Below are positions 2,076 to 30,158 of a stretch of DNA of 43,327 bases, piece after piece; the first letter of the stretch is position 1; every line of letters begins with the position of its first letter. The DNA lies in the NCBI GenBank assembly GCA_013152815.1, contig JAADFO010000011.1:1-43327 (forward strand), given 5' to 3'. Source of the DNA: Nanobdellati archaeon. GTDB taxonomy: Archaea > Nanobdellota > Nanobdellia > Woesearchaeales > JAADFO01. Under the pieces are notes generated by a model that saw nothing but the letters and a program-made list of their open reading frames with translations, did not search any database and was not told where the DNA came from. Position numbers and translations under genes: made by a program.

Positions 2076-3590
2076 CTATCTGCGACAGACCTTCCTGAAG
2101 GTCTCGGCAGCCTCAGCAAGCGTGGGATGGACATGGACGGTCCGGGTGATGGTCTCGAGAAAGGGGCTGCTGCTGTTCATGACAGCAACATACTCATGGA
2201 TAAGCTCGTCTGCTCTTGGACCGACGATGGTGCATCCGAGGATGCGCTGTCGGGTCCTTCGGCCTGCGGAGCCTTTCCTGCCCATGCCGACGATGAGCTT
2301 GATGAACCCCTCTGTCTCTCCGATGATGGCCGCCCTTCCGGCCTTCGCGAACGATGCTTTGTATATCTCGAACAGAAGTTTCCCCTTCGTCGCCTGCTGC
2401 TCGGTCAGTCCGACACCAGCAATAGGAGGTGAGGTGAACACGGCCCAGGGCACCAGGGAGAGATCGAGATGGTCTCCGTGCCGAGAACGGCTGCCGACGA
2501 TGCGGCTCAGAAGCAGCCGCGCCTGCCGCTTTGCCGCATGGGCGAACATGGCCTTTCCTGTCACGTCGCCGACGGCATAGACCGACGGGTTGGTGGTCTG
2601 GAACTTCTTGTCGATGATGATGCCTCCTTCTGGTGAGGTCCTGATTCCTGCCTGTTCCAGACCCAGGCCATCGGTATTGGGCGTCCTTCCTGCAGCGACC
2701 AGCAGGGCATCGCTCGTGATGCTTTTCAGCCTTCCTTTGGCAGTGCCTTTGCCGGCAGGACGATAACGCAGGATGATGCGTCGTCCCTGCCGCTTCACCT
2801 CAGCGATGCTCACGCCTGTCAGGATGACGGTCCCTCGGGAACGCAGTCCTTCAAGGAGGACATCCCGCACATCCTCGTCAAGGGAAGACAGGACCTGAGG
2901 AAGCGCCTCCAGGATGGTCACCCTGGTGCCGAGGCTGCTGAAGAAGGTGGCAAGTTCCATCGAGATGTAGCCGCCTCCGATGAGGGTGAGGGTCCGGGGA
3001 AGGGTCTTAAGATGGAATACGGATTCATTGGTCAGGAAACCTGCATTCTCAAGGCCTTTGATCAGGGGTATCCTGTTACGGGAACCGGTGCAGATCACGA
3101 TGATGGCACCTTTCACGGTCTTCCTGCCCACGCGAAGCGTGTCCTTCGAGAGAAAAGATGCTCTTCCTTTCCAGACCGTAAGATCCGATGCATCGATGCT
3201 CCTGTCGATATGGGCCTGGCCTTTGCGGATGAATGACCTCACCTGTCTCATCATGCGGGGGATATCGAGGCTTGCAGCGGTCCTGATGCCGATGGACGGT
3301 GCTCGGGCTACTGACCGATAGGTCTCGGCAGCATGGAGCATCGCCTTCGTCGGGATGCAACCCGTATGGAGACAGGTTCCTCCTGGCCTGCCGGGCTCCA
3401 CGAGCAGCGTCTGCTTCCCTTTCCGGGCAAGAGAAAGACCGAGACGCAGCCCGGCAGTCCCGCCACCGACTACGATGACATCGAAGGATGCAGAGGACAT
3501 CTGATGATGCATCTTCTTTCCTTTTTCTCTCTGTCCGCTCTGTCCTTTCTGTCCCCGCTGCGTTCCCGGCTTCTTCTGCGTGATCTTCAT
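2076..3590 (-). CDS. Class-I pyridine nucleotide-disulfide oxidoreductase (dihydrolipoamide dehydrogenase/MerA-like), second copy
   Basis: GGGTAG FAD motif, GGTCLHTGCIPTK redox disulfide, GGGYIS NAD motif, HPTLAE; GGTGA RBS before ATG 3590; no C-terminal Cys-Cys. Confidence 0.9.
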   Translation of the reverse strand: MKITQKKPGTQRGQKGQSGQREKGKKMHHQMSSASFDVIVVGGGTAGLRLGLSLARKGKQTLLVEPGRPGGTCLHTGCIPTKAMLHAAETYRSVARAPSIGIRTAASLDIPRMMRQVRSFIRKGQAHIDRSIDASDLTVWKGRASFLSKDTLRVGRKTVKGAIIVICTGSRNRIPLIKGLENAGFLTNESVFHLKTLPRTLTLIGGGYISMELATFFSSLGTRVTILEALPQVLSSLDEDVRDVLLEGLRSRGTVILTGVSIAEVKRQGRRIILRYRPAGKGTAKGRLKSITSDALLVAAGRTPNTDGLGLEQAGIRTSPEGGIIIDKKFQTTNPSVYAVGDVTGKAMFAHAAKRQARLLLSRIVGSRSRHGDHLDLSLVPWAVFTSPPIAGVGLTEQQATKGKLLFEIYKASFAKAGRAAIIGETEGFIKLIVGMGRKGSAGRRTRQRILGCTIVGPRADELIHEYVAVMNSSSPFLETITRTVHVHPTLAEAAETFRKVCRR

Positions 3591-3620
3591 GGGTTCACCA
3601 TCGAGAGGTATCGGATGCAC

Positions 3621-3640
3621 AAGCTTTATAAAGTTTTTTC
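3621..3640. promoter_or_regulatory. Bidirectional archaeal TATA box
   Basis: Palindromic CTTTATAAAG at 3624-3633, about 35-40 nt from both ATG 3590 (-) and ATG 3674 (+). Confidence 0.65.
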
Positions 3641-3673
3641 ATGGAAAGGAAGATGTTCCCGGAGGTGTCTTGC

Positions 3674-3754
3674 ATGGCTAAAGAAGAAGCGACAAAAAAG
3701 AAGAAGAAGCCGGAAGAAGAGGACGACGAGGAAGAAGGCTGTCCGTTCTGCTGA
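3674..3754 (+). CDS. Unannotated 26-aa peptide MAKEEATKKKKKPEEEDDEEEGCPFC with C-terminal CxxC
   Basis: GGAGGTG SD at 3661-3667, ATG 3674, TGA 3752-3754, TATA upstream; too short for the supplied ORF track. Confidence 0.7.
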   Translation: MAKEEATKKKKKPEEEDDEEEGCPFC

Positions 3755-3856: not shown

Positions 3857-4603
3857 CTAACGCAGGGCATTCCATGATCGGGTCGCATACTTCTCTTTCA
3901 CAAGCTCCCCTGCCCTGGCCAGCTCTTCAGCCGTATAGTCGCCGATTTCAGTGTCTCGCCCGTCGCCGAAGGCAGCTTCCAATGCTCTGAGGACCTCTTC
4001 CTTGGAAGCAGCGGTATGCTGGCTGATGCTGGTCACCCTCTTCTTGACGCTTTGGATGAGCTTGTCGGAGATCTTCTCCTTGCTCACTTTCAGGAGGGCA
4101 AACATCCTCTTGACATCGACTGCATAGAGCAAGGTTCCATGCTGCAGCAGGATGCCATGCCTCCGGGTCTGGGCATTTCCCGATATCTTCTTCCCGTCCA
4201 CCAGCACGTCGTTGATGGGCGAGAACCTCGCTGCCATGCCCAGTCGTTCAAGCCCCCGGATGAGGATGCCGCAGACCTGTTCATAGCTCTTCAGGATGTC
4301 CCGGGGGAAATGTTCCTCAGGGCCGATGATGCTGTAGGTGATCTCCCCGGATGCATCATGGTAGACTGCACCGCCTCCGGTTCGCCGTCTTACCCACTCT
4401 ACCCCTGCCTTCCTGCAGGCCTCAAGATCGACCTCATTCTCCAGGCTCTGGAAGTAGCCGATGGATATTGCCGAAGGTTCCCAGCCATAGAAACGGATGG
4501 TGGGAAGGCTCCTGCCTGCCTTGACCGATTCTGCTATGGCCTCGTCCAGGGCCATGTTCATGGCTGCGGGGAATGAACGTTGCCTGATGAGCCGGTATCT
4601 CAT
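3857..4603 (-). CDS. lplA: Lipoate-protein ligase catalytic subunit (LplA-N / BPL_LplA_LipB family)
   Basis: NMALDEA, RRRTGGGAVYHD, KKISGNAQ, LQHGTLL motifs. Confidence 0.93.
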   Translation of the reverse strand: MRYRLIRQRSFPAAMNMALDEAIAESVKAGRSLPTIRFYGWEPSAISIGYFQSLENEVDLEACRKAGVEWVRRRTGGGAVYHDASGEITYSIIGPEEHFPRDILKSYEQVCGILIRGLERLGMAARFSPINDVLVDGKKISGNAQTRRHGILLQHGTLLYAVDVKRMFALLKVSKEKISDKLIQSVKKRVTSISQHTAASKEEVLRALEAAFGDGRDTEIGDYTAEELARAGELVKEKYATRSWNALR

Positions 4604-4893
4604 CGTGTTGCCTCCAGGAGCGCATCCAGGATGTCCTGAGGAGCGATTCCGATGAGGAGGGCATTGTTCTTGCGGAGGATGCCGTCAAGTTCACGGGCGA
4701 TGATACGGTCCCTGTTCTTCAACCCATCGAGAGGCGTACCGATGAGATGATGTTCCAGGGCCCTGAGGGTCTCTTCGGGATGGAGGAAGAAATCTCCGGT
4801 GATGGTCAGGTCCTCAAGATTGAGGCCGAACACGGCATCGACCCGGACCATCTTGCCCCCTGCGACTTTCCTGACTGCATAGCCTGTCCTCAT
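4600..4893 (-). CDS. lplB: Lipoate-protein ligase accessory subunit (stand-alone LplA C-terminal domain, LplB)
   Basis: KVAGGKMVRV and ITGDFFLHPEE motifs; ATGA overlap with lplA. Confidence 0.88.
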   Translation of the reverse strand: MRTGYAVRKVAGGKMVRVDAVFGLNLEDLTITGDFFLHPEETLRALEHHLIGTPLDGLKNRDRIIARELDGILRKNNALLIGIAPQDILDALLEATR

Positions 4894-9845: not shown

Positions 9846-11279
9846 ATGGTAGTAGGATCGTTGCAGGTGGAGACCGACGTCCTGGTCATAGGAGCAGGAC
9901 CAGGAGGGTATGTCGCCGCCATCCGCGCCGCACAGCTGGGAAAGACCGTCACCCTCGTAGACAGGGAAAAGGCGCTCGGCGGCATCTGTCTCCAGAAGGG
10001 ATGCATCCCCACCAAGGCGCTGGTCCATGCCTCTGACTATTTCCATACGCTCCAGGAACTGGATGCCATGGGAATCCTGGTCAAGGAGTACCACGTGGAT
10101 ATCGGCAAGATGATGGCCTGGAAAGACGGCATCCTCGAGCGGCTCGACAAGGGCATACATCTGCTCTGCGAAAAGAACGGCATCGACATCATCGTCGGCA
10201 CGGCCACCTTCATCTCATCGAACGAAGTGCACATCGGAGGCAAGAGCGACATCAACTCCATCATCTTCAGGCAGGCCATCATCGCGACAGGCTCCTCACC
10301 CGTCGAGATCCCGAACTTCCCATTCTCCCATGAGAAGATACTCTCTTCGTCAGAAGCTTTGTCGCTCGCCAAGCTCCCGGAGACCCTCATCATCATCGGA
10401 GGCGGCTACATCGGGACAGAGATGGGGACGGTCTACGGCAAGCTCGGAAGCACCGTCCACATCATCGAGAAGGGGGACCGGCTGATACCGAGCATCGAAG
10501 AGGAGCTGGTCAGGGTGGTCGAGCAGCGGCTCAAGAACTTCAACATCCATCCTCACTACAGGTCGACGGCAGTCGCCTTCTCTGAGAAAGAAGGAAGCAT
10601 GACGGTCACCTATGAAGAACAGGGAGTGAAGAAGGCCCTCACCGGAGACTGTGTCCTCGTGGTGGTCGGCAGGAGACCCAACAGCCAGGGCCTGGGACTC
10701 GACCACACCCAGGTCAAGCTCGACAACAGGGGGTTCATCATCACCGACGAACAGATGCAGACCTCAGACCCGGCCATCTATGCGGTCGGCGACGTGGTCG
10801 GCCAGCCCATGCTCGCCCACAAGGCATCCCGCCAGGGCAAGGTGGCAGCAGAGGCCATCTGCGGACTTCCCGCAGCGTTCGACAACAAGGTCATCCCCTT
10901 TGTGGTGTTCAACGACCCGGAGATCTGCTCGGTGGGACTCACCGCCGGACAGGCAAAGGAACAGGGATATGATGTCCTGGTGGGAAGGTTTCCCTTCAGA
11001 GCCCTGGGCAGGACGATGACGCTCAACAAGAAGGACGGATTCATCAGCTGGGTCGCTGAGAAGGGAAGCAAACTCGTCCTGGGCATGCATGCGGTCGGGC
11101 CGTCAGCCTCAGAGCTCGTCGGCGAGGCGGCGCTTGCCATCGAGATGGGAGCGACGGTGGAAGACATCGCTCTCACCATCCATGCCCATCCTACCATGGG
11201 CGAGTCGCTCATGGAGGCGGCAGAAGCGACCATGGGCCAGGCCATCCACATTTTCCAGCCCGGGACAAAAGAAAGGTAG
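9846..11279 (+). CDS. lpdA: Dihydrolipoamide dehydrogenase E3
   Basis: GAGPGGYVAAIRAAQLG, GGICLQKGCIPTK, MLAHKA, HAHPTMGE; last gene of the operon. Confidence 0.96.
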   Translation: MVVGSLQVETDVLVIGAGPGGYVAAIRAAQLGKTVTLVDREKALGGICLQKGCIPTKALVHASDYFHTLQELDAMGILVKEYHVDIGKMMAWKDGILERLDKGIHLLCEKNGIDIIVGTATFISSNEVHIGGKSDINSIIFRQAIIATGSSPVEIPNFPFSHEKILSSSEALSLAKLPETLIIIGGGYIGTEMGTVYGKLGSTVHIIEKGDRLIPSIEEELVRVVEQRLKNFNIHPHYRSTAVAFSEKEGSMTVTYEEQGVKKALTGDCVLVVVGRRPNSQGLGLDHTQVKLDNRGFIITDEQMQTSDPAIYAVGDVVGQPMLAHKASRQGKVAAEAICGLPAAFDNKVIPFVVFNDPEICSVGLTAGQAKEQGYDVLVGRFPFRALGRTMTLNKKDGFISWVAEKGSKLVLGMHAVGPSASELVGEAALAIEMGATVEDIALTIHAHPTMGESLMEAAEATMGQAIHIFQPGTKER

Positions 11280-17670: not shown

Positions 17671-19203
17671 ATGGCAAAGAAGGACATCCTCAGCAAAGGA
17701 CAGGAACGGCGCACATCAAGGAAGCTCAGCAGACTTTCCGAGAGCGACAGAAGGACAGAGCAGGAGATCGTCTCCATGGACCAGGAGCATCAACAGCTGG
17801 GAAAAGACATCAAGAGGATGCGCAAGAACAATGCCGGAGAAGACCAGGAGACGCTCAGGGCCATGGAAGAGCGATATCAGGCACAGGAGAAGGCCATGAA
17901 AAGACGAGGAAAAGATGCCCGTCGCATCCATGCACAGACCGAACGGCTGCAACAGGATATAGGCGGGCCGGAAACGAGAACACGGCACACGGGTAGGCTG
18001 GCCAGGATCCTCAAGTTCGCATTGCTTCTCGCAGCACTGGCCGTCGGCTATCTTCTCCTCGTCAACAGCATCTCCTCAGGAGACAATCTCATCAGCGGAC
18101 GCGTCGTCGGCTCGGCGTGCAATCTTCGTGAACTCAACTGGATAGAGACCGAGGTGAACCCCGGAGATACCACCCACATCGTCCTCTTCAGCGACCGGTG
18201 CGAAGGCAAGACCGCGCAGGTCAGCATATGGGAACTTCCCGCAGACGACCACAGGGTAGAAGGCACCAAGGTGGCCACCATCGACGACATCATCCTGGGC
18301 GCCCAACCAGCAGAGATGCCCTGGCAGACGCCGACCGACGGAAATACCCCTGATGCGACGGGCAGCAGCGGCACCAGATACTATTATCTCAGGGCATCCC
18401 TGGCCGACAGCCGACAGGGAATAGCATCGGTACGCGATGATGCATCGCTTCTCAAGATCATTAGTTCCCCGGGCAGTGCTGCAGAGCAGGGAAATGGGGA
18501 TAGGGGCCCGCTGGATGACTGCCCGTCCAGCCTGGGCTCCGCTTACCGTAAAGTGGAGACCGATGCAGACTGCGACGGCATAGACAATGATTGTGATGGA
18601 ACCATCGACGAGCTCTGCGGCCCGCGACAGGAACAGCCAGGGACGCTTGATGGTGCAGGTGACGGCAACGACATCGCAGGAAACCAGAGCGACGGATGGT
18701 ATGTGGAAGGCGGCAGCGGCGGCAGCGACATGACCGGTCATCTCTTCATGGGAGCCATACTCCTCCTCGTGGGAGGCGGACTGGCAGGGCTCTTCATCTT
18801 TGAGAAGAAGCACCGGAAGAAAGAGAACCCTCCTCTTGCCAGATTCGAGCATCCGACGATCCAGCATGAGACCGACCAGGCAAGGCTCCATGCCTATGTC
18901 ACCGTGGTCAGGAACCAGGGCTTTGAAGAAAAAGACATCAGAAGGGAGCTCTTCTCCAAAGGATGGAGTCCGCTCCTGGTGGGAAAAGAACTGGCCAGCA
19001 TGGAAACAGCGAAGCAGGGATTCACCATCAAGGTCGACCCGAGAGCATACCATAAGAAGGTCGAGGCAGTCTTCGAGGAGGATATGAGGACAAGAGAGAA
19101 CAGGAGACTGCAGGGATACGGACGCAGGAAAGAACCGCAGCAGACACCAGAGCAGGCCTTCCGCAAGCTTAAGGATTTCGCCGAAGAAAAGATAAGACTC
19201 TGA
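17671..19203 (+). CDS. Two-TM membrane protein with an extracellular domain carrying a CDGxDNDCDGxxDE (MopE-like) metal-binding motif
   Basis: N-terminal coiled coil, TM LLLAALAVGYLLLV, CDGIDNDCDGTIDE, second TM, cytoplasmic helical motif. Confidence 0.8.
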   Translation: MAKKDILSKGQERRTSRKLSRLSESDRRTEQEIVSMDQEHQQLGKDIKRMRKNNAGEDQETLRAMEERYQAQEKAMKRRGKDARRIHAQTERLQQDIGGPETRTRHTGRLARILKFALLLAALAVGYLLLVNSISSGDNLISGRVVGSACNLRELNWIETEVNPGDTTHIVLFSDRCEGKTAQVSIWELPADDHRVEGTKVATIDDIILGAQPAEMPWQTPTDGNTPDATGSSGTRYYYLRASLADSRQGIASVRDDASLLKIISSPGSAAEQGNGDRGPLDDCPSSLGSAYRKVETDADCDGIDNDCDGTIDELCGPRQEQPGTLDGAGDGNDIAGNQSDGWYVEGGSGGSDMTGHLFMGAILLLVGGGLAGLFIFEKKHRKKENPPLARFEHPTIQHETDQARLHAYVTVVRNQGFEEKDIRRELFSKGWSPLLVGKELASMETAKQGFTIKVDPRAYHKKVEAVFEEDMRTRENRRLQGYGRRKEPQQTPEQAFRKLKDFAEEKIRL

Positions 19204-19242
19204 GCAGTCACAAGAAGGAAAGAGAGGAAGGAGACACAGCCC

Positions 19243-20103
19243 ATGCCAAAGGAACGACAGAAGGTCCTCGATTACATCGAGCACGAGATAAAGAAGGGCT
19301 ATCAGATAGAGAACATCAGACAGGTGCTGGTCGAGCATGGTTATGACGATGGCCTGGTGGACACGCTCATCAGGGAGTCCATCGCCGACCTGCAGCAAGA
19401 AGCAGGAGCAGGACCGGCAGGAGAGAGCGGGAGCCCTGCAGAGAGCAAGCCTACGAAGAACAGGACAGGAGAAGCCCAGGCCACTGCCCCTGTCCAGGCC
19501 GATGGTCCGGAGAAAGCGCAGAGGATCCCGGATACGGCAACATCGACGACGACACAGAAAGCAGGACAGGCAGATGCCGACACGACCAGGCTCCGGTTCC
19601 TCCGGGAGGACTTCATCCATCTTCGGATGCCCTCCAGGGACCACACGTTCCTGGTCATCATCCCGACCGCTCTCGGCATCATGGCCCTGGGAACGTTCCT
19701 CATGGGCCTGAGGGTCAGACTCTTCGGTTGGGCACCCGATTGGGCACTCATCAAATTCGCCGTCTATCTCATAGCAGGAACCCTTACGGCCAAGGCCATA
19801 GCCCATCGTCTCAGCACAAAGGGCATGCAGGGATATGATGATGCCATCTTCGAGAAGGTGATGCGTTTCGGATTCATCATCTATCTCCTGAGTCTTGCCA
19901 TGGACGGCAGGATGCTCATGGGTTTTGTCGTGCTCGGCGTCCTGGTCCTCGCCTATGCCCTCGCCCGCAGGACCGGACTTTCGCTCTGGAGATCGGTCAG
20001 GATGACAACGCTCTTCGCCTCGCTGGGACTGGCCATAACCTATGGTTCCATCGCAGTGTCTGCCCTGGCCATCGGTCTCCTGAAAGCGCGGGGCCTCATC
20101 TGA
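19243..20103 (+). CDS. Multi-TM membrane protein with an N-terminal YI...GY...I...L...GY helical motif
   Basis: About five hydrophobic helices in the C-terminal half; GGAG SD upstream. Confidence 0.78.
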   Translation: MPKERQKVLDYIEHEIKKGYQIENIRQVLVEHGYDDGLVDTLIRESIADLQQEAGAGPAGESGSPAESKPTKNRTGEAQATAPVQADGPEKAQRIPDTATSTTTQKAGQADADTTRLRFLREDFIHLRMPSRDHTFLVIIPTALGIMALGTFLMGLRVRLFGWAPDWALIKFAVYLIAGTLTAKAIAHRLSTKGMQGYDDAIFEKVMRFGFIIYLLSLAMDGRMLMGFVVLGVLVLAYALARRTGLSLWRSVRMTTLFASLGLAITYGSIAVSALAIGLLKARGLI

Positions 20104-20258
20104 ACATCTGGACAGGAGCAGGAAGAAGAGAAAGAAGAAGCAAACATCCATAATGAAGCGAGCAGAGAAAGGAAGATTATTAAGTCAGGCCGGTTTTTTC
20201 TCAGAGGACAGGGAACCTTTCAAGAGCTGAAGATAAGCGAGAAGCAGCAGACAGCACC

Positions 20259-21953
20259 ATGACAGACGTGATCGACGAGCAGTTCGTAGCAGACCTCCTT
20301 GCAAGGATAAGGGGAAAGAATCCCGCCAAGGATGACATCTCCCGCATCAAGAACCGGCTTGCTGCGAAACATCATCTCAGGAAGGCGCCCACGGACATAG
20401 ATATCCTGCTCAGGGCATCGGCGAAGGAGCGAAGGCTGCTCAAGCCCTATCTCAAGACAAAACCTGTCAGGACACAATCAGGAGTGGCTCCTGTCGCCCT
20501 GATGACCCGCCCCATCAACTGCAAGCATGGACGGTGCACCTATTGCCCCGGAGGGATCGGCTCGTTCTTCGGTGACATGCCCCAGAGCTATACCGGGAAC
20601 GAACCCTCCACCATGCGGGCCATCCGGAACGACTATGAAGCATATCTCATCGCCATGAACCGGCTTGAACAATACGCCCTCCTGGGACATGAGCTGACCA
20701 AGGTGGAGGCCATCGTCATGGGAGGGACCTTCACCTCCTTTGACAGGAGATACCAGAGGCATTACATCACCGACATGTTCCAGGCGTTCAACGACTTCGG
20801 CGACCGTTTCATGGACAAGGGCAGGGTCGACCTGGACAAGCTGAAGGAAGCCTTCCTCCTGCCCGGCGACCTTCATGACAAAGGACGGGCAAAGAAGGTG
20901 AAGAAGAATCTCCATGCCCTGAAGAGGAAGACGACCCTCGAGAAGGAGCAGCAAAGGAACGAGTCTGCAACGGTACGCTGCGTCGCCCTGTGTCTGGAGA
21001 CACGACCAGACTATGCCAAACCGAGGCACATCGACCAGATGCTCAGGCTGGGATGCACCCGGGTGGAGATGGGTGTCCAATCGGTCCATGATGAGGTCCT
21101 CAGAGCGGTACACCGCAGCCATACGGTCAAGGAATCGATCGATGCGACCCGCTACCTCAAGGACAGCCTGCTCAAGGTCGGGTATCACATGATGCTCGGC
21201 CTTCCGGGCATGGACTACGACCAGGACCTGGAGCAGCTCAGGCAGGTCATCACGGATTCCCGGTTCAAGCCCGATGCGTTGAAGATATACCCCACCATGG
21301 TGATGCCCGGGACCGTCCTTCACACCCAATACAGACGGGGAGAATACACCCCCATGAGGACCAAAGAGGCGGCATCCCTGATCGCAAAGTTCATGAAGGA
21401 TATCCCGTCCTGGCTGAGGATCATGCGTGTCCAGCGGGACATCCCCACCAAGGTGACGATCGACGGCGTGGACAGGACCAACCTCCGCCAATACGTCGAG
21501 CAGGAGATGCAGAGACAGGGCATCAGGAGCAGGGACATCCGGGCAAGGGAACCGAAGCACCCGCAGGATCCGAAGGACTGGATGCTCGTCCGGCAGGAAT
21601 ATGAGGCCAGCAAAGGCACGGAGATCTTCCTTTCCATGGACAACCGTAGGCATGATGAGCTGCTGGGGTTCCTGCGGCTGCGCATACCGTCAAGGCCCAT
21701 GAGGAAAGAGTTCGATGACCGGACAGCAGGCATCAGAGAGCTCCACGTCTATGGAGGCGCCACCGCATTGGGCAAGAAAGGAGAGGTGCAGCACAGGGGC
21801 ATCGGAAGGAGACTGCTGGAAGAGGCCGAGAGGATAGCCAAAGAAGAATTTAAGAAGGACATGATGCTCATCATCTCAGGGGTAGGAGCAAGAGAGTATT
21901 ACCGGAAGTTCGGCTATAGGCGAACAGGCCCGTATATGAGAAAAGGGCTGTGA
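20259..21953 (+). CDS. elp3: tRNA U34 carboxymethylation radical SAM/GNAT enzyme Elp3
   Basis: KPVRTQSGVAPVA, CKHGRCTYCPGG, ETRPD, RVQRDIP, RELHVYG, QHRGIG. Confidence 0.96.
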   Translation: MTDVIDEQFVADLLARIRGKNPAKDDISRIKNRLAAKHHLRKAPTDIDILLRASAKERRLLKPYLKTKPVRTQSGVAPVALMTRPINCKHGRCTYCPGGIGSFFGDMPQSYTGNEPSTMRAIRNDYEAYLIAMNRLEQYALLGHELTKVEAIVMGGTFTSFDRRYQRHYITDMFQAFNDFGDRFMDKGRVDLDKLKEAFLLPGDLHDKGRAKKVKKNLHALKRKTTLEKEQQRNESATVRCVALCLETRPDYAKPRHIDQMLRLGCTRVEMGVQSVHDEVLRAVHRSHTVKESIDATRYLKDSLLKVGYHMMLGLPGMDYDQDLEQLRQVITDSRFKPDALKIYPTMVMPGTVLHTQYRRGEYTPMRTKEAASLIAKFMKDIPSWLRIMRVQRDIPTKVTIDGVDRTNLRQYVEQEMQRQGIRSRDIRAREPKHPQDPKDWMLVRQEYEASKGTEIFLSMDNRRHDELLGFLRLRIPSRPMRKEFDDRTAGIRELHVYGGATALGKKGEVQHRGIGRRLLEEAERIAKEEFKKDMMLIISGVGAREYYRKFGYRRTGPYMRKGL

Positions 21954-22031
21954 GCGTCAAGGAAAAGAAAGAGAGCAAGAAGAAGGAGAACAGGAAAAGG
22001 AGAGAGAAAGAAAGAAGAAAACGTGCTGCCC

Positions 22032-23066
22032 ATGGCGAAAGACTACCAGAAGGAAGACGTGAATATCAAGCCTGCCTTCCAGGAACGCTATGCCGCACTG
22101 ACCGACTGGGAGGCCTTCCTGAGCTGCTCGCTTCGCTTCCTGCGGAGGAGCATCCGGGTCAACACCCTCAAGATGAGCGTGCATGAACTGGTCGCGCGGC
22201 TGGAGCCGGAATGGAAGCTCACTCCGATCCCCTGGTGCCCTGAAGGGTTCTGGATAGAACACCGGAAAGGTGAGCGACGGGACATCGGCAACATCCCTGA
22301 GCATTCCCTGGGCTACTTCTACATACAGGAGGCAGCGTCCATGATACCTCCGCTGGTGATGGACCCCCGACCAGGAGAGACCGTCCTCGACATGTGCGCG
22401 GCTCCGGGAAGCAAGGCAACACAGATCGGCATGTACCTGAAGAACGAAGGGACACTTGTTGCTAACGACTACACCGGTATCCGGATGCAGAGCCTCGGCA
22501 TCAACCTGCAGCGCTGCGGACTCACGAACAGCGTCGCCACGCTCATGGAAGGAAGATGGTTCAAAGGGCATCAGTTCGACAGGATCCTCGTCGACGCGCC
22601 CTGTTCTGGGACAGGCACCATCAGGAAATCGCTCAAGACCCTCCGCATCTGGAACCCGAACATGGTAAGGCGGATAAGCGGCCAACAACGCCAGCTCCTG
22701 GAGAGTGCCTATCAGAACCTCAAGCCCGGAGGGGTCATCGTCTACTCGACCTGCACCCTGGAGCCGGAAGAGGACGAAGGCATCATCAGCTGGCTCCTGC
22801 ACAAGCATGAGGACATCCATACCGAGAAGATAGACCGGGGACGGTTGCCCGGACTCAAGACCAGCAAGGTGGTGACGTCCTTCGGAGGGGTCGACTTCCA
22901 TCCCGGAGTGAAAGACTGCATCCGGATCTGGCCCCAGGACAATGACACCGAAGGGTTCTTCATCTGCAGGCTCGTGAAGGAAAAGAGGGAGACAAAGAAA
23001 GAGCAGGAAGAGACGAAAGATGCGCTTCCTCAGAAGAAGCCCGACCTGCCTGACAAAGGTTTTTAA
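22032..23066 (+). CDS. RsmB/NOP2/Trm4-family RNA m5C methyltransferase
   Basis: YIQEAASM, LDMCAAPGSK, DAPCSGTG, YSTCT, GFFI. Confidence 0.93.
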   Translation: MAKDYQKEDVNIKPAFQERYAALTDWEAFLSCSLRFLRRSIRVNTLKMSVHELVARLEPEWKLTPIPWCPEGFWIEHRKGERRDIGNIPEHSLGYFYIQEAASMIPPLVMDPRPGETVLDMCAAPGSKATQIGMYLKNEGTLVANDYTGIRMQSLGINLQRCGLTNSVATLMEGRWFKGHQFDRILVDAPCSGTGTIRKSLKTLRIWNPNMVRRISGQQRQLLESAYQNLKPGGVIVYSTCTLEPEEDEGIISWLLHKHEDIHTEKIDRGRLPGLKTSKVVTSFGGVDFHPGVKDCIRIWPQDNDTEGFFICRLVKEKRETKKEQEETKDALPQKKPDLPDKGF

Positions 23067-23090
23067 AGGCATCGGACATCCCTTCTGTTC

Positions 23091-23768
23091 ATGAAAGTCC
23101 TGCATCTTGAGGCCAGGTACACCAAGAAGATAGCCCTGCCTGCGGCAGCCATCAGGAAGCTTCCTGAGAAGGTCGCGCTCTTCATGTCGGTCCAGTTCCT
23201 CGATTCGCTCCAGGACATCAAGGCAGCCCTCGAGAAGAGAGGGAAGAAGGTCCTGCTGTTCCAGACAAGACACACACGCTACCTCGGCCAGCTCTACGGG
23301 TGCAACAACGAGAAGTACGAAGGAGACTATGACGCCTTCCTCTACGTCGGAGACGGGGAGTTCCATCCAAAAGCGTTGGCCCTGGCGAACAGGAAGCCCA
23401 TCTTCATCTACAACCCCATCACCAAGAAGTCCGGCCAATGGAAGCAGCAGTATTTCCTGGAAGAGCAGAAGCGGACCCGGGCTGCCCTGCTGCGGTTCCA
23501 CTCGTCAGAGCGCATAGGGATCCTGGTGACCACCAAGTCCGGCCAGAACAAGATACGGCTGGGGAAGCTCCTTGAGAAGCGCCATCCCGAGAAGACGTTC
23601 TTTTACCTGGTCTTCGACTCCCTGGAGTTCGGGCGGCTGGAGGACTTCCCGTTCATCCAGTGCCTGGTCAACACTGCCTGCGAACGGATCGCCTTCGAGG
23701 ACAGGAAACGGTTCTTCAGGCCGGTCATCAACGCCGAGGACATCCTCTGGCCAGAACGTCTCCAGTAA
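23091..23768 (+). CDS. dph2: Diphthamide synthesis protein Dph2, short form
   Basis: GQLYGC, YVGDGEFH, GILVTTKSGQ, VNTACERI. Confidence 0.82.
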   Translation: MKVLHLEARYTKKIALPAAAIRKLPEKVALFMSVQFLDSLQDIKAALEKRGKKVLLFQTRHTRYLGQLYGCNNEKYEGDYDAFLYVGDGEFHPKALALANRKPIFIYNPITKKSGQWKQQYFLEEQKRTRAALLRFHSSERIGILVTTKSGQNKIRLGKLLEKRHPEKTFFYLVFDSLEFGRLEDFPFIQCLVNTACERIAFEDRKRFFRPVINAEDILWPERLQ

Positions 23769-23793
23769 AATCAGATCGAAACAGGTTACCTGC

Positions 23794-24165
23794 TCATTTC
23801 CGTCGGGGCAATGGCGGTCTCTTCAGGTCCCGGTCATTCATGCCCTGCAGGATCTCCTCGAACCGGGAAAGGGTCTTCTTGGACGTGTCGACGACAATAC
23901 CCAGGAAGACGAAGCTCGTGATCAGGAGGAGCCAGATGAAGATGGCATTGATCATCTCCCAGGTGATGATCCGATCCATGACAAAACGGTTCTGGATGAT
24001 CCTGAAGCCGAAATATGCCACTGCGACGCCGACCGCGAGGATGAGCATCTCGAAGACACTCGGCCTGCTTGTCTGTGCAGAGGATTCGCCTCTTATCCTG
24101 CCAGCGGTTCTTCCCTGCTGCCTGCCGCTCGGGTGTTCTGTTCTCATGGTATCACCTGGTTTCAT
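23794..24165 (-). CDS. Small two-TM membrane protein, last gene of the MoxR cluster
   Basis: Two hydrophobic helices; ATGA overlap with the DUF58 gene. Confidence 0.7.
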   Translation of the reverse strand: MKPGDTMRTEHPSGRQQGRTAGRIRGESSAQTSRPSVFEMLILAVGVAVAYFGFRIIQNRFVMDRIITWEMINAIFIWLLLITSFVFLGIVVDTSKKTLSRFEEILQGMNDRDLKRPPLPRRK

Positions 24166-25010
24166 CTCAGGACGTCCCAGAAGACGTCGAAGATGGGTTT
24201 GTCTGTGGTCACGGTCCAGAACCGCGCCTTGAGTTCCTTGGCCGTATCCTGCAGGAGATGGATGTGTTCCTGCAGCCTGTCCTGATAATGGCTCTTCAGG
24301 CGGGGCGTGACCGATGTCCTCAGCTGGTCTCCGGATTCCATGTCCCTGAGGAAGAAATCTCCCTCCAGATCGAGATGCACCTCGCTGGGATCCAGGACCT
24401 GGATGAGATGCACATCATGCTGGGGAAACTGCATGATGCCGTTGCGGAACTCCTTCACGTCGAAGAGGAAGTCTGAGATGATGACGATGAAGCTCCGGCT
24501 GCCGATGGTGCGACGGTAGCGCACCATGGAACCTTCGAAGTTGGAGGAGCCGGAGAGCTGCAGCCCGTCGAGATGGTCGACCATGGATCCCAGTTGGGAA
24601 CCCTTGAGGCTCGTCGGGAAGAGGGTAAGATCGTCGCCGAAGGTGGCTATCCTGAACTTTTCATTGTTCTTCATGGCAAGATAGCAGAAACCGATGCCGA
24701 GCAGGGCTGCATAGTCGAACTTCCGCGTCTTCGCCCCATAGTCCATGGACTTCGAGCTGTCCACCACGGCATTGACGACCAGGGAACGGTCCTCGTCATA
24801 GCGCTTGACATAGAGGTCGTCGGTCCTGGCGAAGATCTTCCAGTCGATGGAACGGAAATCGTCCCCTGGAGAATAGATGCGATGGTCGCTCATCACCGTC
24901 CCCCTGCCGAGGAAGTTGGACTTGCGGTCGCCGCTGTACTTGGAGGTGATCTTCCGTTTGATCACCAGGTCGAACTTCTCCAGTTCTTTGAGGATGCTCA
25001 GGTCGATCAT
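24162..25010 (-). CDS. DUF58 domain (vWA-like) protein
   Basis: HRIYSPGDDFRSIDWKIFART, DSSKSM, IISDF. Confidence 0.93.
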   Translation of the reverse strand: MIDLSILKELEKFDLVIKRKITSKYSGDRKSNFLGRGTVMSDHRIYSPGDDFRSIDWKIFARTDDLYVKRYDEDRSLVVNAVVDSSKSMDYGAKTRKFDYAALLGIGFCYLAMKNNEKFRIATFGDDLTLFPTSLKGSQLGSMVDHLDGLQLSGSSNFEGSMVRYRRTIGSRSFIVIISDFLFDVKEFRNGIMQFPQHDVHLIQVLDPSEVHLDLEGDFFLRDMESGDQLRTSVTPRLKSHYQDRLQEHIHLLQDTAKELKARFWTVTTDKPIFDVFWDVLR

Positions 25011-25132
25011 TTATGGGCCTCGCGCGTCATGCGCTCTGGATAACGTGAAACGTGATGATCTTTCCTATGGCAGGATCAATCGACGACCTTCTCCTGCCAT
25101 TTTCATCCTTTCATGCCTTCTTCATGCAGGCT

Positions 25133-26065
25133 TCATGCCTTCTTCAGGACAGCGGACACGACATCGTCAGGGGAAAGGCCTTTCCGTTCAGCCTCGAAGG
25201 TCGGGATGATCCTATGACGCAGCACAGGATAGGCCATCTTCTCTATATCGGCGGAAGAGACATAGTTCTTCCCCTTGATGAGCGCGTAGGCCTTGGAGGC
25301 AAGGGTCAAGGCGATGGATGCCCGGGGAGACGCCCCGTAGGCGATGAGCTCATGCTTCCTCGTCAGGGTGACTATCCTGATGATCCTGTTCTTCAGGTCG
25401 TTGGCGATGGGCATCTGCTTCACGAGGTCCTGGAGATACTGGATCTTCTCCTTGTTGAGGACCTTTTTCAGGCGCACATTGGTCCCTGCTGCGGTATATT
25501 GGTTTACGATGGCAAGCTCTTCCTGGGGAGACGGATAGCCGACGAGGATCTTGAGCAGGAACCGATCAGCCTGGGCCTCGGGAAGCGGGTAGGTGCCTTC
25601 CTGTTCGATGGGGTTCTGGGTGGCCAGGACGAAGAACGGAAGATCGAGCTTGAAGGTGGAATTTCCCACAGTCACCTGCTTCTCCTGCATGGCCTCCAGC
25701 AGCGCAGACTGGGTCTTCGGCGTGGCCCGGTTGATCTCGTCCGCAAGGACGATGTTGGCGAAGATGGGACCGGGATTGAACTTGAAGGAACGTTTCCCGC
25801 CAGAACCCTCCTCGATGAAATAGGTGCCGGTGATGTCCGAAGGCATGAGGTCCGGCGTGCTCTGGATCCGGGAGAACTTCAGGTCCAGGGCGCTGGCAAG
25901 GCTCTTGATGGCCAGGGTCTTCGCGAGACCCGGATAGCCTTCCAGCAGGCCGTTCCCGTCGCAGAGCAGGGTGACGAGGACCTGTTCGATGACCTCGTCC
26001 TGCCCTATCACCACACGATGGAGCTCTTTCATCAGCACTTTCATTATATCTTCGACGTTCTTCAT
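25133..26065 (-). CDS. moxR: MoxR-family AAA+ ATPase
   Basis: Walker A GYPGLAKT, TPDLMPSDITG, LADEINRATPKTQSALLEAMQE, ATQNPIEQEGTYPLPEAQADRF; GAGGTGA RBS before ATG 26065. Confidence 0.96.
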   Translation of the reverse strand: MKNVEDIMKVLMKELHRVVIGQDEVIEQVLVTLLCDGNGLLEGYPGLAKTLAIKSLASALDLKFSRIQSTPDLMPSDITGTYFIEEGSGGKRSFKFNPGPIFANIVLADEINRATPKTQSALLEAMQEKQVTVGNSTFKLDLPFFVLATQNPIEQEGTYPLPEAQADRFLLKILVGYPSPQEELAIVNQYTAAGTNVRLKKVLNKEKIQYLQDLVKQMPIANDLKNRIIRIVTLTRKHELIAYGASPRASIALTLASKAYALIKGKNYVSSADIEKMAYPVLRHRIIPTFEAERKGLSPDDVVSAVLKKA

Positions 26066-26088
26066 GATCTTCACCTCAATTCAACAAT

Positions 26089-26925
26089 TCAATTGTTTGC
26101 CAGGGACGTGAAATAGTTCTTCACCACGACCCGTTCATCCTCGTCTATCTTCTCTGCATAGGTCTTGGCCGCCGTCGCATAGAGCTCGACCGGAAGCTCG
26201 GACCTGAACTGCTCATCGGCATAGTCTGCCTCGTTCTTCAGGTCCAGCTCGAACCCGAAATCATTGATGACCAGATCGATGACATCGTTCCCCAGGCTTG
26301 CCACGGTATTGTCACGGATGACCTCATCGGAGACCGTCCCCAGGGGTTCTTTGTCCCCGTCGGTGGTCTCTCCATGGATGGAATTCTGCAGCATGGCAAG
26401 GGCATTCTTCGACAGGTCATCCACACTCTCGCCTATCTGCCGGGGCATGTCCCGGAAGGAGTCTCGTATCGCCTCTTTCATGGGGAAGAGCCCTTCCTGG
26501 AGGAAACTGACGAACATCAGGGAGAAGATGAGCAAAAGAAGGACCCCCACCTTGAGGGTGAGCCTCTTGCTGTCGAGCAGCACCGAGAGCCGGAACCGTC
26601 TGAGTCCGGCCATCACCTCGCGCTTGAGCTCATCGACGATGGGGTTGGCATGCCTTCGGTATTGGGCAGCGGTCCGCAGCCGCTCCTTCAGGACGGCATC
26701 ATGGTCCTCCACCTCACGCAGGCCCGTCCCGGAGAACCGTACATACAGGGCCACCAGGAGGTAGACCAACGCCGGCACGACGGCCGCCAGGGATATGAAG
26801 GTGAAGATGGAGAGCAGGAGGAAGGTGGCCAGGAAGATGAGGCCGGTGTTGAGAAGTATATCAAAGACCCAGATGGATTCTACGCTCAGCTTGAGCTCCC
26901 GCAGTATCTTGCTGAAATCGCTCAT
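26089..26925 (-). CDS. Membrane protein of the MoxR/vWA cluster
   Basis: Three TM segments, LKERLRTA motif, acidic C-terminal region ending VVKNYF. Confidence 0.8.
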   Translation of the reverse strand: MSDFSKILRELKLSVESIWVFDILLNTGLIFLATFLLLSIFTFISLAAVVPALVYLLVALYVRFSGTGLREVEDHDAVLKERLRTAAQYRRHANPIVDELKREVMAGLRRFRLSVLLDSKRLTLKVGVLLLLIFSLMFVSFLQEGLFPMKEAIRDSFRDMPRQIGESVDDLSKNALAMLQNSIHGETTDGDKEPLGTVSDEVIRDNTVASLGNDVIDLVINDFGFELDLKNEADYADEQFRSELPVELYATAAKTYAEKIDEDERVVVKNYFTSLANN

Positions 26926-27036
26926 GGTGGTTCCTTTATGTTCTCAAATGCATGTTCTCAAATGTTTGAGAACGCCTGATGTCTTGATGGCCGGCCGGAC
27001 CTCAGGGCTCCGGCGTCTCCTGACGCGGCTCTTGTT

Positions 27037-27675
27037 CTATGAAGTGGAGGTGACCGATGATGCGATGGACTGGAGATGGTTCTTGGAGGATTTGACCGAC
27101 GCGAAGCTGTCGTCGACGAGCGACAGTGTCGCTTTGCAGCTCGAGCTCGTCGCGTTGTCTGCGATGGAGGCATCCAACATGGCCTGCACAGCATCCACAC
27201 GGTCATCGAGCCGGGATACTTCGCTGTCATAGCTCTCCAACGATTGCTGGGCATTGCTCAGGACGGCCTGGGTGTTGATGAGGGTCAGCTTCTCTGTCTG
27301 GAGCTCCTTCAGCTTGTCCTGGAGCTGAGCCTTGGTGGTCGCCAGTTCCATCGTTGTCGAGGTGAGGGCGGTGGTCACGTTCTGCAGCTGCGCCTCACGG
27401 GTGGCGGCCTCTTCCCTGAGGCCCTGGTAGTTCTCGCTGAGCTGCTGCTCCCGTCTTTCCTTGAGCTTGACGGTCACCATGGTCTCGTTGAGCTTGGACT
27501 TCTCCGCCTGCAGGTCGGCGATGAGCTTGTCATATCTCTGCTGGACCGTGAAATGGCGTTCGGCGAGCTCTGAAAGGCTTGAATGATAGTAGGAGGTCAC
27601 GACCACGAGGGAGATGACCAGCAGCATGACCAGGCCAAGGAGGATCAGCATCGTGTTTTTCTGGAAAAAGCCCAT
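27037..27675 (-). CDS. Membrane-anchored coiled-coil protein
   Basis: N-terminal TM helix followed by a long heptad-rich region. Confidence 0.78.
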   Translation of the reverse strand: MGFFQKNTMLILLGLVMLLVISLVVVTSYYHSSLSELAERHFTVQQRYDKLIADLQAEKSKLNETMVTVKLKERREQQLSENYQGLREEAATREAQLQNVTTALTSTTMELATTKAQLQDKLKELQTEKLTLINTQAVLSNAQQSLESYDSEVSRLDDRVDAVQAMLDASIADNATSSSCKATLSLVDDSFASVKSSKNHLQSIASSVTSTS

Positions 27676-27767
27676 GGTCATCACTTCTTTTTGCTGTCTT
27701 TCATCCTGGGAAACTCATTTATAAGGTTTTTTATCATGTTGCTGTCATTGGCCTCCTGGGCAGCGCT

Positions 27768-30158
27768 TCATCGCGGCCTCCGGAGAGCGATATCCACCAG
27801 GAAGACGATGATGGCCAATGCGAGGAAGGGCCAGCGGAGCAGGATCCGCTGGGCAAAGGAGCTTCTGGCGACGCTCTTCACCCGCTCGATGATGAAATTA
27901 GGATCGTCGCTGGAGAAGACCTCCCCGCCGTTGTCCCTGATGAGCTTGAGGAAGCCCTCATCCATCCCGGTATGCCGGTATTCCTCCTTGCTGTTGACCC
28001 CTAATTTTGCGCCCAACAGATCTTTTATGCCGACCGCGTCCGGAGTGTAGCTGAGACGGTAGGTGTCTTTTCCGACTTTGGCCAGGGGGTATCGGTCGGT
28101 GCCCGGCCGGGATTTGGAATAGATCAGGAGGTTCGTGGGGGTCTTCACCTGCGCCTGTGTGATGAGCAGGGCGAAGTCCTGCTGGCGCTTGTTCGAGCCG
28201 ATGATCCAGTTGACCGTCCTGCTGATGAGCAGGGAATTCTCCTGCCCGAGCAGGTCCCCGGACCAGGCCATGCCCTCGTCGGTGGACAATACGGCCACAC
28301 GGCCGAGGCCGTAGCGGCCGACCGTGAGGATGGGATTGTTGGAGCCGGTGGTGACCAGGAGCTGTGCGTGGGACTTGGGGATGACCGCATTGAAGCCGGC
28401 CACCGACGCCTTGAGCTGCAGGCCACGGGTGATGAAGTGGTCGGTGTTGAGGATGACCAGCTGCTTGTCTGACTCCTCCTTGAAATCCCCCTGCGGGCCG
28501 AAGAGGATCTTGAGCTTCTGGGTCTCGTCGGGCTCGAAATAGGAGTCAGAACCGCCTGCAGCAGCCAGGCTCCGGAGGATCCTGCTGTTTGTCCCCTCAC
28601 CGATGCCGACGGTATAGAGTTTCATGCCGTCATCCTTGATGTCGTTGGCTATCTCGAAGGCATATTCGGTGTTGCGGTTCTCCCGGCCGTCAGATATGAG
28701 GATGATGTTGTTGGAGCCCTTCGCTGAGATGAGCTGGTCATAGGCCACCTCAAGCCCTGCAGAGATCTGGGTCGCGCCGGAGAAAGGGAGCGAGGTGATG
28801 TCTGCCCTGAGCTGGTCACGGGAAGAGGCGAGCCTGCGGAGCGGCCTGATGAGCTTTCCCTCGTTGTTGAAGGTGACCAGTGATACCGAGACATCATCAC
28901 CGAGGGTGTTGAGGATCTCGATGGCGATGGCCTTCTGGACCGCTCCCCGGGTATAGACCGAGCCGGACTTGAACTTCCTGCCTGAACTCTGGGACACGTC
29001 AAGCACCAGGACCACATTGGTGTCCTCCTTGGACTTCTTCTTGGCCTTGCCGGAAAAGACAGGGAGCATGGTCTCGGTGAGGCTGTCCCGATAGCCGCCG
29101 AAGTCGAAGGACCGGTCCCCTCCGATGAAGAGGATGCCTCCGCCGTCATTGAGATAACCGGAAAGAGAATCGAAATAGGGGTCGAGAGAGGACGCTTCCC
29201 GGTTGGCGATGAGCACCCCGTCAAAGGCAGAGAGATCCGCAGGGAGACTTCCCCGTTCCACGTTGTAGACCTGCCCCAGCAGCCGACGAAGGGGAGGGTT
29301 GCCGCTTCCGACATAGAGGAGCCGGGGAGGAGGGATGCCGGCGACCACCCAGTAGAAGGCATTGTTCTCCGGGAAATGGTCCTTGAGGGAGATGACCGCC
29401 GATATGGCATGATATCCTTCGGTGATACGCCGTTTCAGGGTGATGGGTTTGTCGGGAACCACCTCCTTGGAGAGTATTGTCTCGCCGTCGAAGGTGATGG
29501 TCAGGGGGACGGGCGAGACATGGTCAGGATCGGCTGCTTCCACCACCACAGAAAAGCCTGCATCGGTGCCGGTGATGACCTCCGGAGGCCCTTTGATGAT
29601 GACACTGTAGTCCTGGTCCCGGGGGACGAGCTCGAGGGCGGAGACGGTGCTGTTCAACGAGGAGGTGAACCGCAGGATCTCGTCGACTGCCTTCCCCTCG
29701 GTATTCCTGCCGTCGGTGATGATGAGGACCTGTTCCTGCTGTTTGCTGTTGGCGAGGATGCCGTCGCCTATGGCAGTTCCTTCTCCCGGCGAGAAGCTGA
29801 GGACCTGGGTGGGCAGCCCCTTCTTGAGGGCAGAGATCACCCGGTTGATGTCGCTGCGGTCGAAGAGGTCCATGGAGCTGGAGTTGTCAATGAGGATGGT
29901 TATCTTTGGGTCAGAGACGACCTCGCGCTGCTGGAAGATGAACGGTGAGGCGAAGGCGATGGAAAGGAAAAGGTAGAGGAGCAGCCGGGTCCAGAGGATG
30001 CGCCGGCGAAGCGGCTTCACCTTCTGCAGGTGGCTCTCCTCGCTCTTCGGGTCATTGAAACGCACCAGGGTCTTCCTGACGAACCAGAAGGTGACGATGG
30101 CGAGGAGGAGAAAAAGAGGGAAGACCGCCGGGTACTGGAAAGAGGAGAGGAGCCCCAT
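27768..30158 (-). CDS. Membrane-anchored protein with two vWA domains and a GATase1-like domain
   Basis: MIDAS-like DNSSS/ITDG and DVSQS/ISDG; GGGILFIGGDRSF; GRYGLGRVA; terminal TMs. Confidence 0.88.
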   Translation of the reverse strand: MGLLSSFQYPAVFPLFLLLAIVTFWFVRKTLVRFNDPKSEESHLQKVKPLRRRILWTRLLLYLFLSIAFASPFIFQQREVVSDPKITILIDNSSSMDLFDRSDINRVISALKKGLPTQVLSFSPGEGTAIGDGILANSKQQEQVLIITDGRNTEGKAVDEILRFTSSLNSTVSALELVPRDQDYSVIIKGPPEVITGTDAGFSVVVEAADPDHVSPVPLTITFDGETILSKEVVPDKPITLKRRITEGYHAISAVISLKDHFPENNAFYWVVAGIPPPRLLYVGSGNPPLRRLLGQVYNVERGSLPADLSAFDGVLIANREASSLDPYFDSLSGYLNDGGGILFIGGDRSFDFGGYRDSLTETMLPVFSGKAKKKSKEDTNVVLVLDVSQSSGRKFKSGSVYTRGAVQKAIAIEILNTLGDDVSVSLVTFNNEGKLIRPLRRLASSRDQLRADITSLPFSGATQISAGLEVAYDQLISAKGSNNIILISDGRENRNTEYAFEIANDIKDDGMKLYTVGIGEGTNSRILRSLAAAGGSDSYFEPDETQKLKILFGPQGDFKEESDKQLVILNTDHFITRGLQLKASVAGFNAVIPKSHAQLLVTTGSNNPILTVGRYGLGRVAVLSTDEGMAWSGDLLGQENSLLISRTVNWIIGSNKRQQDFALLITQAQVKTPTNLLIYSKSRPGTDRYPLAKVGKDTYRLSYTPDAVGIKDLLGAKLGVNSKEEYRHTGMDEGFLKLIRDNGGEVFSSDDPNFIIERVKSVARSSFAQRILLRWPFLALAIIVFLVDIALRRPR

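Follow-up and report, generated by a model that had tools for sequence, protein, structure and literature searches.

A conserved CPFC micro-gene divergent from a class I disulfide oxidoreductase in Woesearchaeales: a candidate dithiol carrier and its proposed reductase

Can an open reading frame of 26 codons be a gene and, if so, what could a peptide that ends in a cysteine pair do beside a flavoprotein that has no such pair at its own C-terminus? The question is raised by a 43,327-nt stretch of DNA (in the following the window) from a Nanobdellati archaeon of the order Woesearchaeales, in which such a reading frame lies divergent from a disulfide oxidoreductase gene. The first-pass annotation, made from the sequence alone, had read the peptide as a possible free-standing version of the C-terminal redox tail of enzymes such as MerA or the high-Mr thioredoxin reductase, forming a two-part thiol-redox or metal-handling system next to the lipoate/pyruvate dehydrogenase (PDH) locus.

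The micro-gene and its conservation beside the flavoprotein

The features of the pair and its surroundings are collected in Table 1. A 26-aa reading frame behind a strong Shine-Dalgarno (SD) sequence and a palindromic TATA-like box between the divergent genes had both been described before, and both are found exactly where they were said to be. The peptide consists of a Lys-rich part followed by an acidic linker and by CPFC, a glutaredoxin-type dithiol motif. With its small size and the motif at the very end it is presumably too short to form a thioredoxin fold around the CxxC. A profile scan gave no Pfam or NCBIfam match for it and the ESM Atlas no usable match, and within its genome it is the sole charged micro-ORF that ends in Cx[FY]C-stop.

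Table 1. Positions of the divergent pair, its sequence signals and neighbouring lipoate and E3 genes in the window
Feature	Position	Strand	Basis
Micro-gene, 26 aa, C-terminal CPFC with Cys as last residue	3674..3754	+	Sequence; conserved pairing; codon variation
Shine-Dalgarno GGAGGTG of the micro-gene	3661..3667	+	6 nt before ATG (sequence)
Palindromic TATA-like box CTTTATAAAG, between the divergent genes	3624..3633	.	Sequence
Class I pyridine nucleotide-disulfide oxidoreductase, unnamed clade	2076..3590	-	Pfam PF07992/PF02852; tree; model
GGTGA, possible SD for flavoprotein start 3590	3595..3599	-	4 nt upstream of ATG 3590 (sequence)
Redox-active CxxxxC of the flavoprotein	3357..3374	-	Invariant in 50/50 clade sequences
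Glu at the end of the second strand of the NAD(P)-binding fold (Glu198, numbering from ATG 3500)	2907..2909	-	Alignment
HPTxxE His-Glu acid-base dyad	2112..2129	-	100% of 50 clade sequences
Genes for lipoate ligases (lplA and lplB-like), convergent with the micro-gene; not part of the conserved context	3857..4893	-	Profile matches
Operonic lpdA (E3), ends the lipA-E1a-E1b-E2 operon	9846..11279	+	TIGR01350; groups with E3s in the tree

As to the expression signals, an SD-like word precedes 17/21 of the paired peptides, a count obtained with a permissive pattern and with the start picked to suit it. The box CTTTATAAAG was counted 34 times over both strands of the 1.49-Mb genome, corresponding to 17 sites, so that the palindrome is not rare on its own; a TATA-like word is present in 19 of the 20 evaluated intergenic regions, and the box of the window would serve both divergent genes.

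To the right of the module the window carries lplA/lplB, lipA, E1a, E1b, E2 and lpdA. Its positions 1–2000 have a GC content of 0.29–0.44, as compared to about 0.58 to the right, and contain an IS200-type tnpA (810–1142) as well as a ParE / AbrB-MazE-like pair (1337–1829); this stretch is likely a mobile patch just downstream of the flavoprotein. Further to the right (18076–31931, minus strand) a cluster with a MoxR AAA ATPase, DUF58, BatA and vWA genes is found, together with several large ORFs.

The first-pass annotation had proposed looking for the ORF and its terminal CxxC beside orthologues of the enzyme. When 401 genomes of the order were searched with a profile built from 66 close flavoprotein homologues, 17 matches scored 539–674 bits and a gap followed; two genomes, G381 (partial match) and G168 (gene split over two contigs), were added by tree or context, which resulted in an orthologue set of 19 genomes including the one studied here. 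In 17 of these 19 (16/18 top orthologue loci, plus G168) a charged ORF of 12–33 aa that ends in C-[PE]-F-C-stop is kept divergent from the flavoprotein gene. The peptide gene of G050 lies elsewhere, upstream of ccdA, and in G313 (88% complete) the enzyme is present and no peptide was found. No such micro-ORF was located within 1.5 kb of the 12 next-best homologue loci, nor a divergent one at any of the 77 scored loci of 80 distant homologues (0/77, among the matches listed; 30–36% identity, taken from a contig scan with generic patterns), and block shuffles of the 21 module loci produced three in 73.1 Mb.

An independent pattern scan of metagenomes yielded 58 matches, 12 of which were charged micro-ORFs (10 distinct), the remaining 46 being treated as chance. 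Among the seven distinct short metagenomic peptides, five face the gene of the enzyme; for one the contig stops 147 nt upstream, and the last has a different neighbour. Among 29 peptides of 12–46 aa nothing is invariant apart from the initial Met and C-x-F-C, and the 21 pairs between them use either Cys codon, each of the four Pro codons and any of the three stops; selection therefore acts on the terminal dithiol. The loose CPFC-stop pattern is itself near chance level: out of 28 further regions only one, in G321, held a charged micro-ORF, and there was none inside four viral pattern matches. The paired genomes span 14 families, and the locus counts are not independent because the genomes are related. 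The micro-gene is real and conserved.

The flavoprotein clade and its relation to MerA and E3

The reading frame of the flavoprotein can start at 3590; in most orthologues 8–13 residues precede the first Gly motif, in agreement with the alternative ATG 3500. The 30-residue Lys/Gln/Gly-rich N-terminal extension encoded by 3501–3590 on the minus strand is not seen in orthologues and may be translated, given its SD-like word. The earlier description of a paralogue with CxxxxC and HPTxxE and without a C-terminal Cys pair was accurate, as the motifs are in place and a vicinal pair is found at the C-terminus of 0/50 clade sequences. A single Cys occurs there in two, the window enzyme has one C-terminal Cys, and most chains of the clade stop within ~10 residues of the His-Glu dyad. 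Glu198 is present in 98% of the 50 clade sequences, 83% of six dihydrolipoamide dehydrogenases (E3s) and 19% of the group that resembles bis-gamma-glutamylcystine reductase (GCR); its column, which we take to be the NAD(H)-preference position of this fold, suggests that the enzyme prefers NAD(H).

In the IQ-TREE phylogeny (49 rows) 21 orthologues form a clade of their own with a support of 98/97, apart from E3, MerA, glutathione reductase (GR) and the GCR-like group, and FastTree (126 rows) agrees with this placement. The E3 sequences are set apart at 100/100, and the link between the orthologue clade and the GCR-like group, which contains Halobacterium and Natrinema homologues, is weak (73/24). 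The closest named homologues of the window flavoprotein come from Woesearchaeota, Pacearchaeota and Nanoarchaeota, pointing to a Woesearchaeota-like DPANN host, and the protein scores under every listed NCBIfam cut-off. Its monomer model has a typical class I fold (pLDDT 92.5), the closest solved folds being lipoamide dehydrogenases (TM ~0.87). The window genome (G000) has three class I flavoproteins, namely the operonic E3, a MerA on contig C58 and the divergent flavoprotein.

MerA shares with the clade the scaffold and the active-site Cys pair. All of the 50 clade sequences (100%) have His where two MerA rows have Phe, a column that presumably is MerA position 605. The accessible text of PMC8261052 gives a vicinal C-terminal Cys pair and Tyr or Phe at 605 as MerA signatures. 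On TIGR02053 (cut-off 454.45) the window flavoprotein reaches 307.8. Its identity as MerA was rejected on account of the missing vicinal Cys pair, the His in place of Tyr/Phe, the separate clade and the true merA on C58. The latter belongs to a mer-like operon which looks complete (G000:C58:12279-14730) and consists, by motif, of a regulator, merA with a terminal Cys pair, a membrane protein and a metal-binding protein.

The operonic lpdA had been said to supply E3 already, so that the paralogue would need another job. This is true of G000 and three other genomes (G182, G112 and G130), in which the canonical operonic lpdA is kept alongside the orthologue. In G000 the two proteins are 31% identical, and TIGR01350 (cut-off 408.8) gives 525.3 for the operonic lpdA and 371.8 for the divergent flavoprotein. 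It does not hold for G390 (one contig), G172 and G276, where the PDH operon has no lpdA and no full-length gene other than the orthologue matches TIGR01350 (3/3 tested); there the orthologue may act as E3, directly or via the peptide, since it is the only E3 candidate. PDH operons without lpdA are also present in G327 and in G237, the latter having an E3 elsewhere. Operons of this kind (E1a-E1b-E2 with lipA and/or lplA; L423 3656-7773, L424, L425, L426 and L430) encode a shorter E2 of 402–415 aa.

It could be argued that the flavoprotein is an atypical dihydrolipoamide dehydrogenase acting on the lipoyl arm of E2 and that dihydrolipoyl-E2 reduces the peptide, which would then be an AhpD-like adaptor. 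The mycobacterial Lpd/DlaT/AhpD chain, in which AhpD draws on lipoyl-E2, offers a precedent in the accessible text of PMC12995895; an E3-like enzyme, a lipoyl protein and a CxxC adaptor could be linked likewise here. Three orthologues (those of G112, G276 and G172) pass TIGR01350 with scores of 451.3, 423 and 416.7, another one staying under it at 403; the motifs of E3 are present throughout the clade (CxxxxC 100%, HPTxxE 100% and the NAD-type acidic residue 98% of 50 sequences), an AH motif is common to clade and E3, and the nearest solved folds are E3s. A lipoyl domain was detected in 8/10 orthologue genomes tested, and the module lies near PDH genes in G000 and G182. However, the orthologues fall outside the E3 group in the tree, the gene of the enzyme is tied to the peptide and not to PDH, and no lipoyl domain was found in G284 (95% complete) and G060 (91%), both of which have enzyme and peptide, so that E3 is not the conserved job; AhpD, in addition, is a folded protein that serves AhpC. 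We regard the atypical E3 as an unlikely explanation.

Residues typical of the clade (50 sequences) are R/K19 (90%), H97, K324, R325 and W352, and the basic R/K19, K324 and R325 would lie near the substrate cleft. Because bacterial GRs also carry Arg at 19 and often at 325, R/K19 and R325 mark an anionic substrate and not this peptide specifically. The residues just before the motif are acidic in 22/26 CPFC peptides and basic in 35/41 CE[FY]C peptides, a few probable chance ORFs included. G351, G381 and G050 lack a basic residue at position 19 and have basic peptides; L202, with Ala19 and a very acidic peptide, is a counter-example. As this match of charge between enzyme and peptide at position 19 rests on two independent events, it is suggestive only.

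The CcdA operon and peptides without the enzyme

The lipoate/PDH locus turned out not to be the conserved setting of the pair: other orthologue loci mostly have ccdA-operon genes in its place, and it is a CcdA/VKOR operon that is conserved as the third partner. A gene for a CcdA-type membrane electron transporter, which had gone unnoticed in the first-pass annotation, lies within about 5 kb of 11 of the 17 enzyme-adjacent peptides; one of the other six has VKOR only, one a His-rich gene at the contig end and four have none. Elsewhere among the genomes the peptide gene is usually the first of an operon that includes an NPC/LPC membrane protein, accompanied by VKOR and an exported thioredoxin-like lipoprotein or by a His-rich membrane protein. 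Both the NPC and the LPC Cys of this CcdA-type neighbour are invariant in 14/14. Two out of three scanned proteins match DsbD_TM (32.6, cut-off 27.1) and DsbD_2 (27.9, cut-off 24.9), all three scoring best on SfLAP, and the two conserved membrane Cys together with the profile match place the neighbour in the DsbD family. A CcdA profile gave a top subgroup of 44 matches, 11 of them seeds, and the peptide lies within 2.5 kb of 26/44 of these loci (16/33 without the seeds); among lower-scoring loci it is beside ccdA in 8/10 fetched.

According to the accessible text of PMC3322552, CcdA draws electrons from a cytoplasmic dithiol carrier. Peptide and enzyme remain together in G000, G130 and G284, with ccdA at another location. 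The lipoprotein thioredoxin and ccdA-type genes of G000 are on another contig, C60 (24809-25973), with no peptide there, so that the CcdA step would occur in trans in this genome; the C60 pair, the probable trans partner, sits just upstream of what looks like a ribosomal L3-L4-L2 cluster.

The His-rich membrane-anchored protein beside ccdA (L054 5690-6460 and homologues) is marked by the motifs HWHxD and HxHxDxRxHxE and by two Cys, all of them invariant, and matches no Pfam or NCBIfam family. Five of its His are invariant, and its model is confident (pLDDT 89); the fold search was led by a helical hairpin, and the best match to the soluble domain, 3u7z (Z 6.6, rmsd 2.7, 88 aligned), was not significant. 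The Atlas offered a lead to a Nitrososphaerota 'protein-disulfide isomerase family' at 0.87.

Related peptides are found well outside the enzyme clade. The VCE[FY]C-stop pattern gave 47 matches in 45/401 genomes (a tally that includes G274, a genome marked unpublished on which none of the conclusions depends) versus six control matches, and 34 of the 45 genomes contain, by inspection, a Lys-rich micro-ORF. Fourteen of the 34 have a GCR-like enzyme, and in G171 the divergent layout recurs with this enzyme. A check of another 19 genomes with a Lys-rich VCE[FY]C peptide left 11 without a class I flavoprotein match at E<=1e-40; of these enzyme-less genomes four are 100% complete by markers, and others reach 84–97%. 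In G235, which encodes two CPFC peptides, none was found at 1e-20. Judged from gene content, the peptide family does not need this enzyme, and the enzyme-less genomes therefore suggest a free carrier that may be served by more than one reductase rather than an obligate split tail. The idea of a free-standing redox tail thus survives insofar as a separate dithiol peptide lies beside a tail-less enzyme, but not as a 'split tail', since related peptides occur without it. In total, the micro-gene family is present in about 60 of the 401 genomes and would, from its length, mostly be too short for gene callers.

Some members of this wider family show peculiarities of their own. The CPFC micro-genes of G235 (L051 6428-9618) are 3 kb apart and head VKOR-Trx-ccdA and a P-type ATPase gene, respectively, with two membrane ORFs, one of them DoxX-like, between them. 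A longer class of 42–46 aa that ends in KAE[DE]GCPFC occurs on contigs of 46–55% GC (L182 2543-2671, L188 586-726 and L190 1853-1981); two of the three lie downstream of a P-type ATPase gene, and neither enzyme nor ccdA was seen nearby. Variants with a zinc-finger-like (LIM-/TRASH-like) N-terminal part before the terminal Cx[FY]C were found at L338 1995-2129, L339 4080-4199, L344 1896-2012, L357 1657-1788, L358 3231-3368, L405 3312-3440 and L404 3133-3420, including one 95-aa Lys/Ala/Ser-rich form; LIM scores 24.1 (cut-off 22.9) in one of these variants, and the TRASH and zf-FCS matches are weak.

The peptide might then be a general partner of the CcdA subgroup that is reduced by TrxB/thioredoxin, the flavoprotein being merely co-regulated through a shared stress promoter and acting on another disulfide substrate. 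The frequent proximity of peptide and ccdA given above speaks for this, as does the occurrence of the peptide without the enzyme in at least 12 genomes, and since all 11 genomes tested have a TrxB-like gene (full-length in all 10 besides the window genome) a normal donor for CcdA probably exists. Yet three genomes keep the peptide with the enzyme while ccdA is elsewhere, the acidic CPFC class closely tracks the enzyme clade, and the layout recurs with the second enzyme clade of G171, which makes a mere co-regulation of the flavoprotein quite improbable. A peptide that replaces thioredoxin as the sole system is ruled out, as the window genome has TrxB and TrxA.

A proposed dithiol relay

Our preferred reading, to which we assign a probability of about 0.48 and thus slightly less than even odds, sees in the peptide an unstructured dithiol carrier of ribosomal origin and in the divergent flavoprotein its dedicated reductase, in a chain that leads from NADH via flavoprotein, peptide and CcdA to exported thiol proteins. 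NADH would reduce FAD and then the CxxxxC of the flavoprotein; the CPFC disulfide of the peptide would enter the open substrate cleft and be reduced there, comparable to the tail of the high-Mr thioredoxin reductase in cis. The reduced peptide would diffuse to the cytoplasmic face of CcdA, which would hand the electrons to exported thiol proteins such as the lipoprotein thioredoxin, VKOR or the His/Cys-rich membrane protein. Short CxxC peptides have potentials around -200 mV and NADH of -320 mV, from which electrons would be expected to pass from NADH to the peptide. Probably the peptide stands in, as a gene-encoded compound, for small thiol cofactors such as glutathione. More tentatively, these DPANN archaea could use a ribosomal Cx[FY]C-COOH peptide of 12–46 residues as a foldless dithiol in place of a small thiol or thioredoxin; a new, NAD-dependent class I clade would be dedicated and charge-matched to it, and the peptide would feed CcdA and in lineages without lpdA may also drain the lipoyl arm of PDH.

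A tail-less thioredoxin reductase is reportedly able to reduce tail peptides in trans. The high-Mr enzyme has the same class I flavin scaffold and, as given in the accessible text of PMC6155587, a terminal two-Cys centre (e.g. GCUG) that is reduced by the FAD-proximal disulfide and passes the electrons on, whereas here the centre is a separate gene product, the enzyme is archaeal with an NAD-type Glu and the proposed acceptor is CcdA. The window enzyme scores 157.8 on TIGR01438 (cut-off 475.85) and has no C-terminal redox centre in the same chain. GR, mycothione reductase and GCR are also tail-less class I enzymes with a His-Glu dyad and a diffusible disulfide substrate, and the haloarchaeal GCR was once mis-annotated as MerA/E3 (accessible text of PMC7278568). 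In contrast to GR and the haloarchaeal-homologue group (the characterised GCR being absent from the tree), the present enzymes form a separate clade, and the substrate proposed for them is a ribosomal peptide whose gene is adjacent; NF005884 (cut-off 501) gives 262.6, which leaves the window enzyme outside the GCR/mycothione-reductase-like family.

The relay from thioredoxin to CcdA/DsbD resembles the one proposed here in that the neighbour has NPC/LPC Cys and lies next to an exported thioredoxin-like lipoprotein or VKOR, but the linked dithiol is a peptide of 12–46 aa without a thioredoxin fold and the linked reductase is of class I and not TrxB. Very small archaeal proteins with CxxC are also known as the haloarchaeal C(P)XCG zinc-finger micro-proteins; these have, in the accessible text of PMC11241148, at least two motifs, whereas the window peptide has one, at the very end.

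A role of the peptide in binding or chaperoning a soft metal (Hg, Cu or Zn) by its terminal CxxC, with delivery to the flavoprotein or an exporter in the membrane, is very improbable, for in spite of the zinc-finger-like part in some family members, the P-type ATPase genes near several loci and the five invariant His of the neighbouring membrane protein, the enzyme lacks MerA signatures in a genome with its own merA operon and has retained the His-Glu dyad that serves disulfide substrates, the neighbours that are conserved belong to a thiol relay, and the ATPases match Cation_ATPase_N/C families and not the heavy-metal-binding domain. From the two-part thiol-redox or metal-handling system first suggested, the thiol-redox alternative therefore remains as the best reading, while its MerA-like metal branch is contradicted by the His for Tyr/Phe, the absent Cys pair and the separate mer operon.

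The peptide and its flavoprotein apparently represent an undescribed micro-gene family with a dedicated enzyme clade inside a known kind of thiol relay; the accessible portion of the open-access literature contains no description of peptide or clade that we could find, and supplementary DPANN annotation tables could list these ORFs. If the proposed chain is true, this would be the smallest natural thiol-redox carrier gene, its foldless peptide taking over the task of thioredoxin or glutathione, and a natural counterpart in trans of the thioredoxin reductase tail, possibly an intermediate between small-thiol and tailed reductases. It would also correct how an entire enzyme clade, at present labelled 'dihydrolipoyl dehydrogenase', is annotated, expose a micro-gene family mostly below gene-caller length, and explain how reduced DPANN cells might power the thiol chemistry of their envelope.
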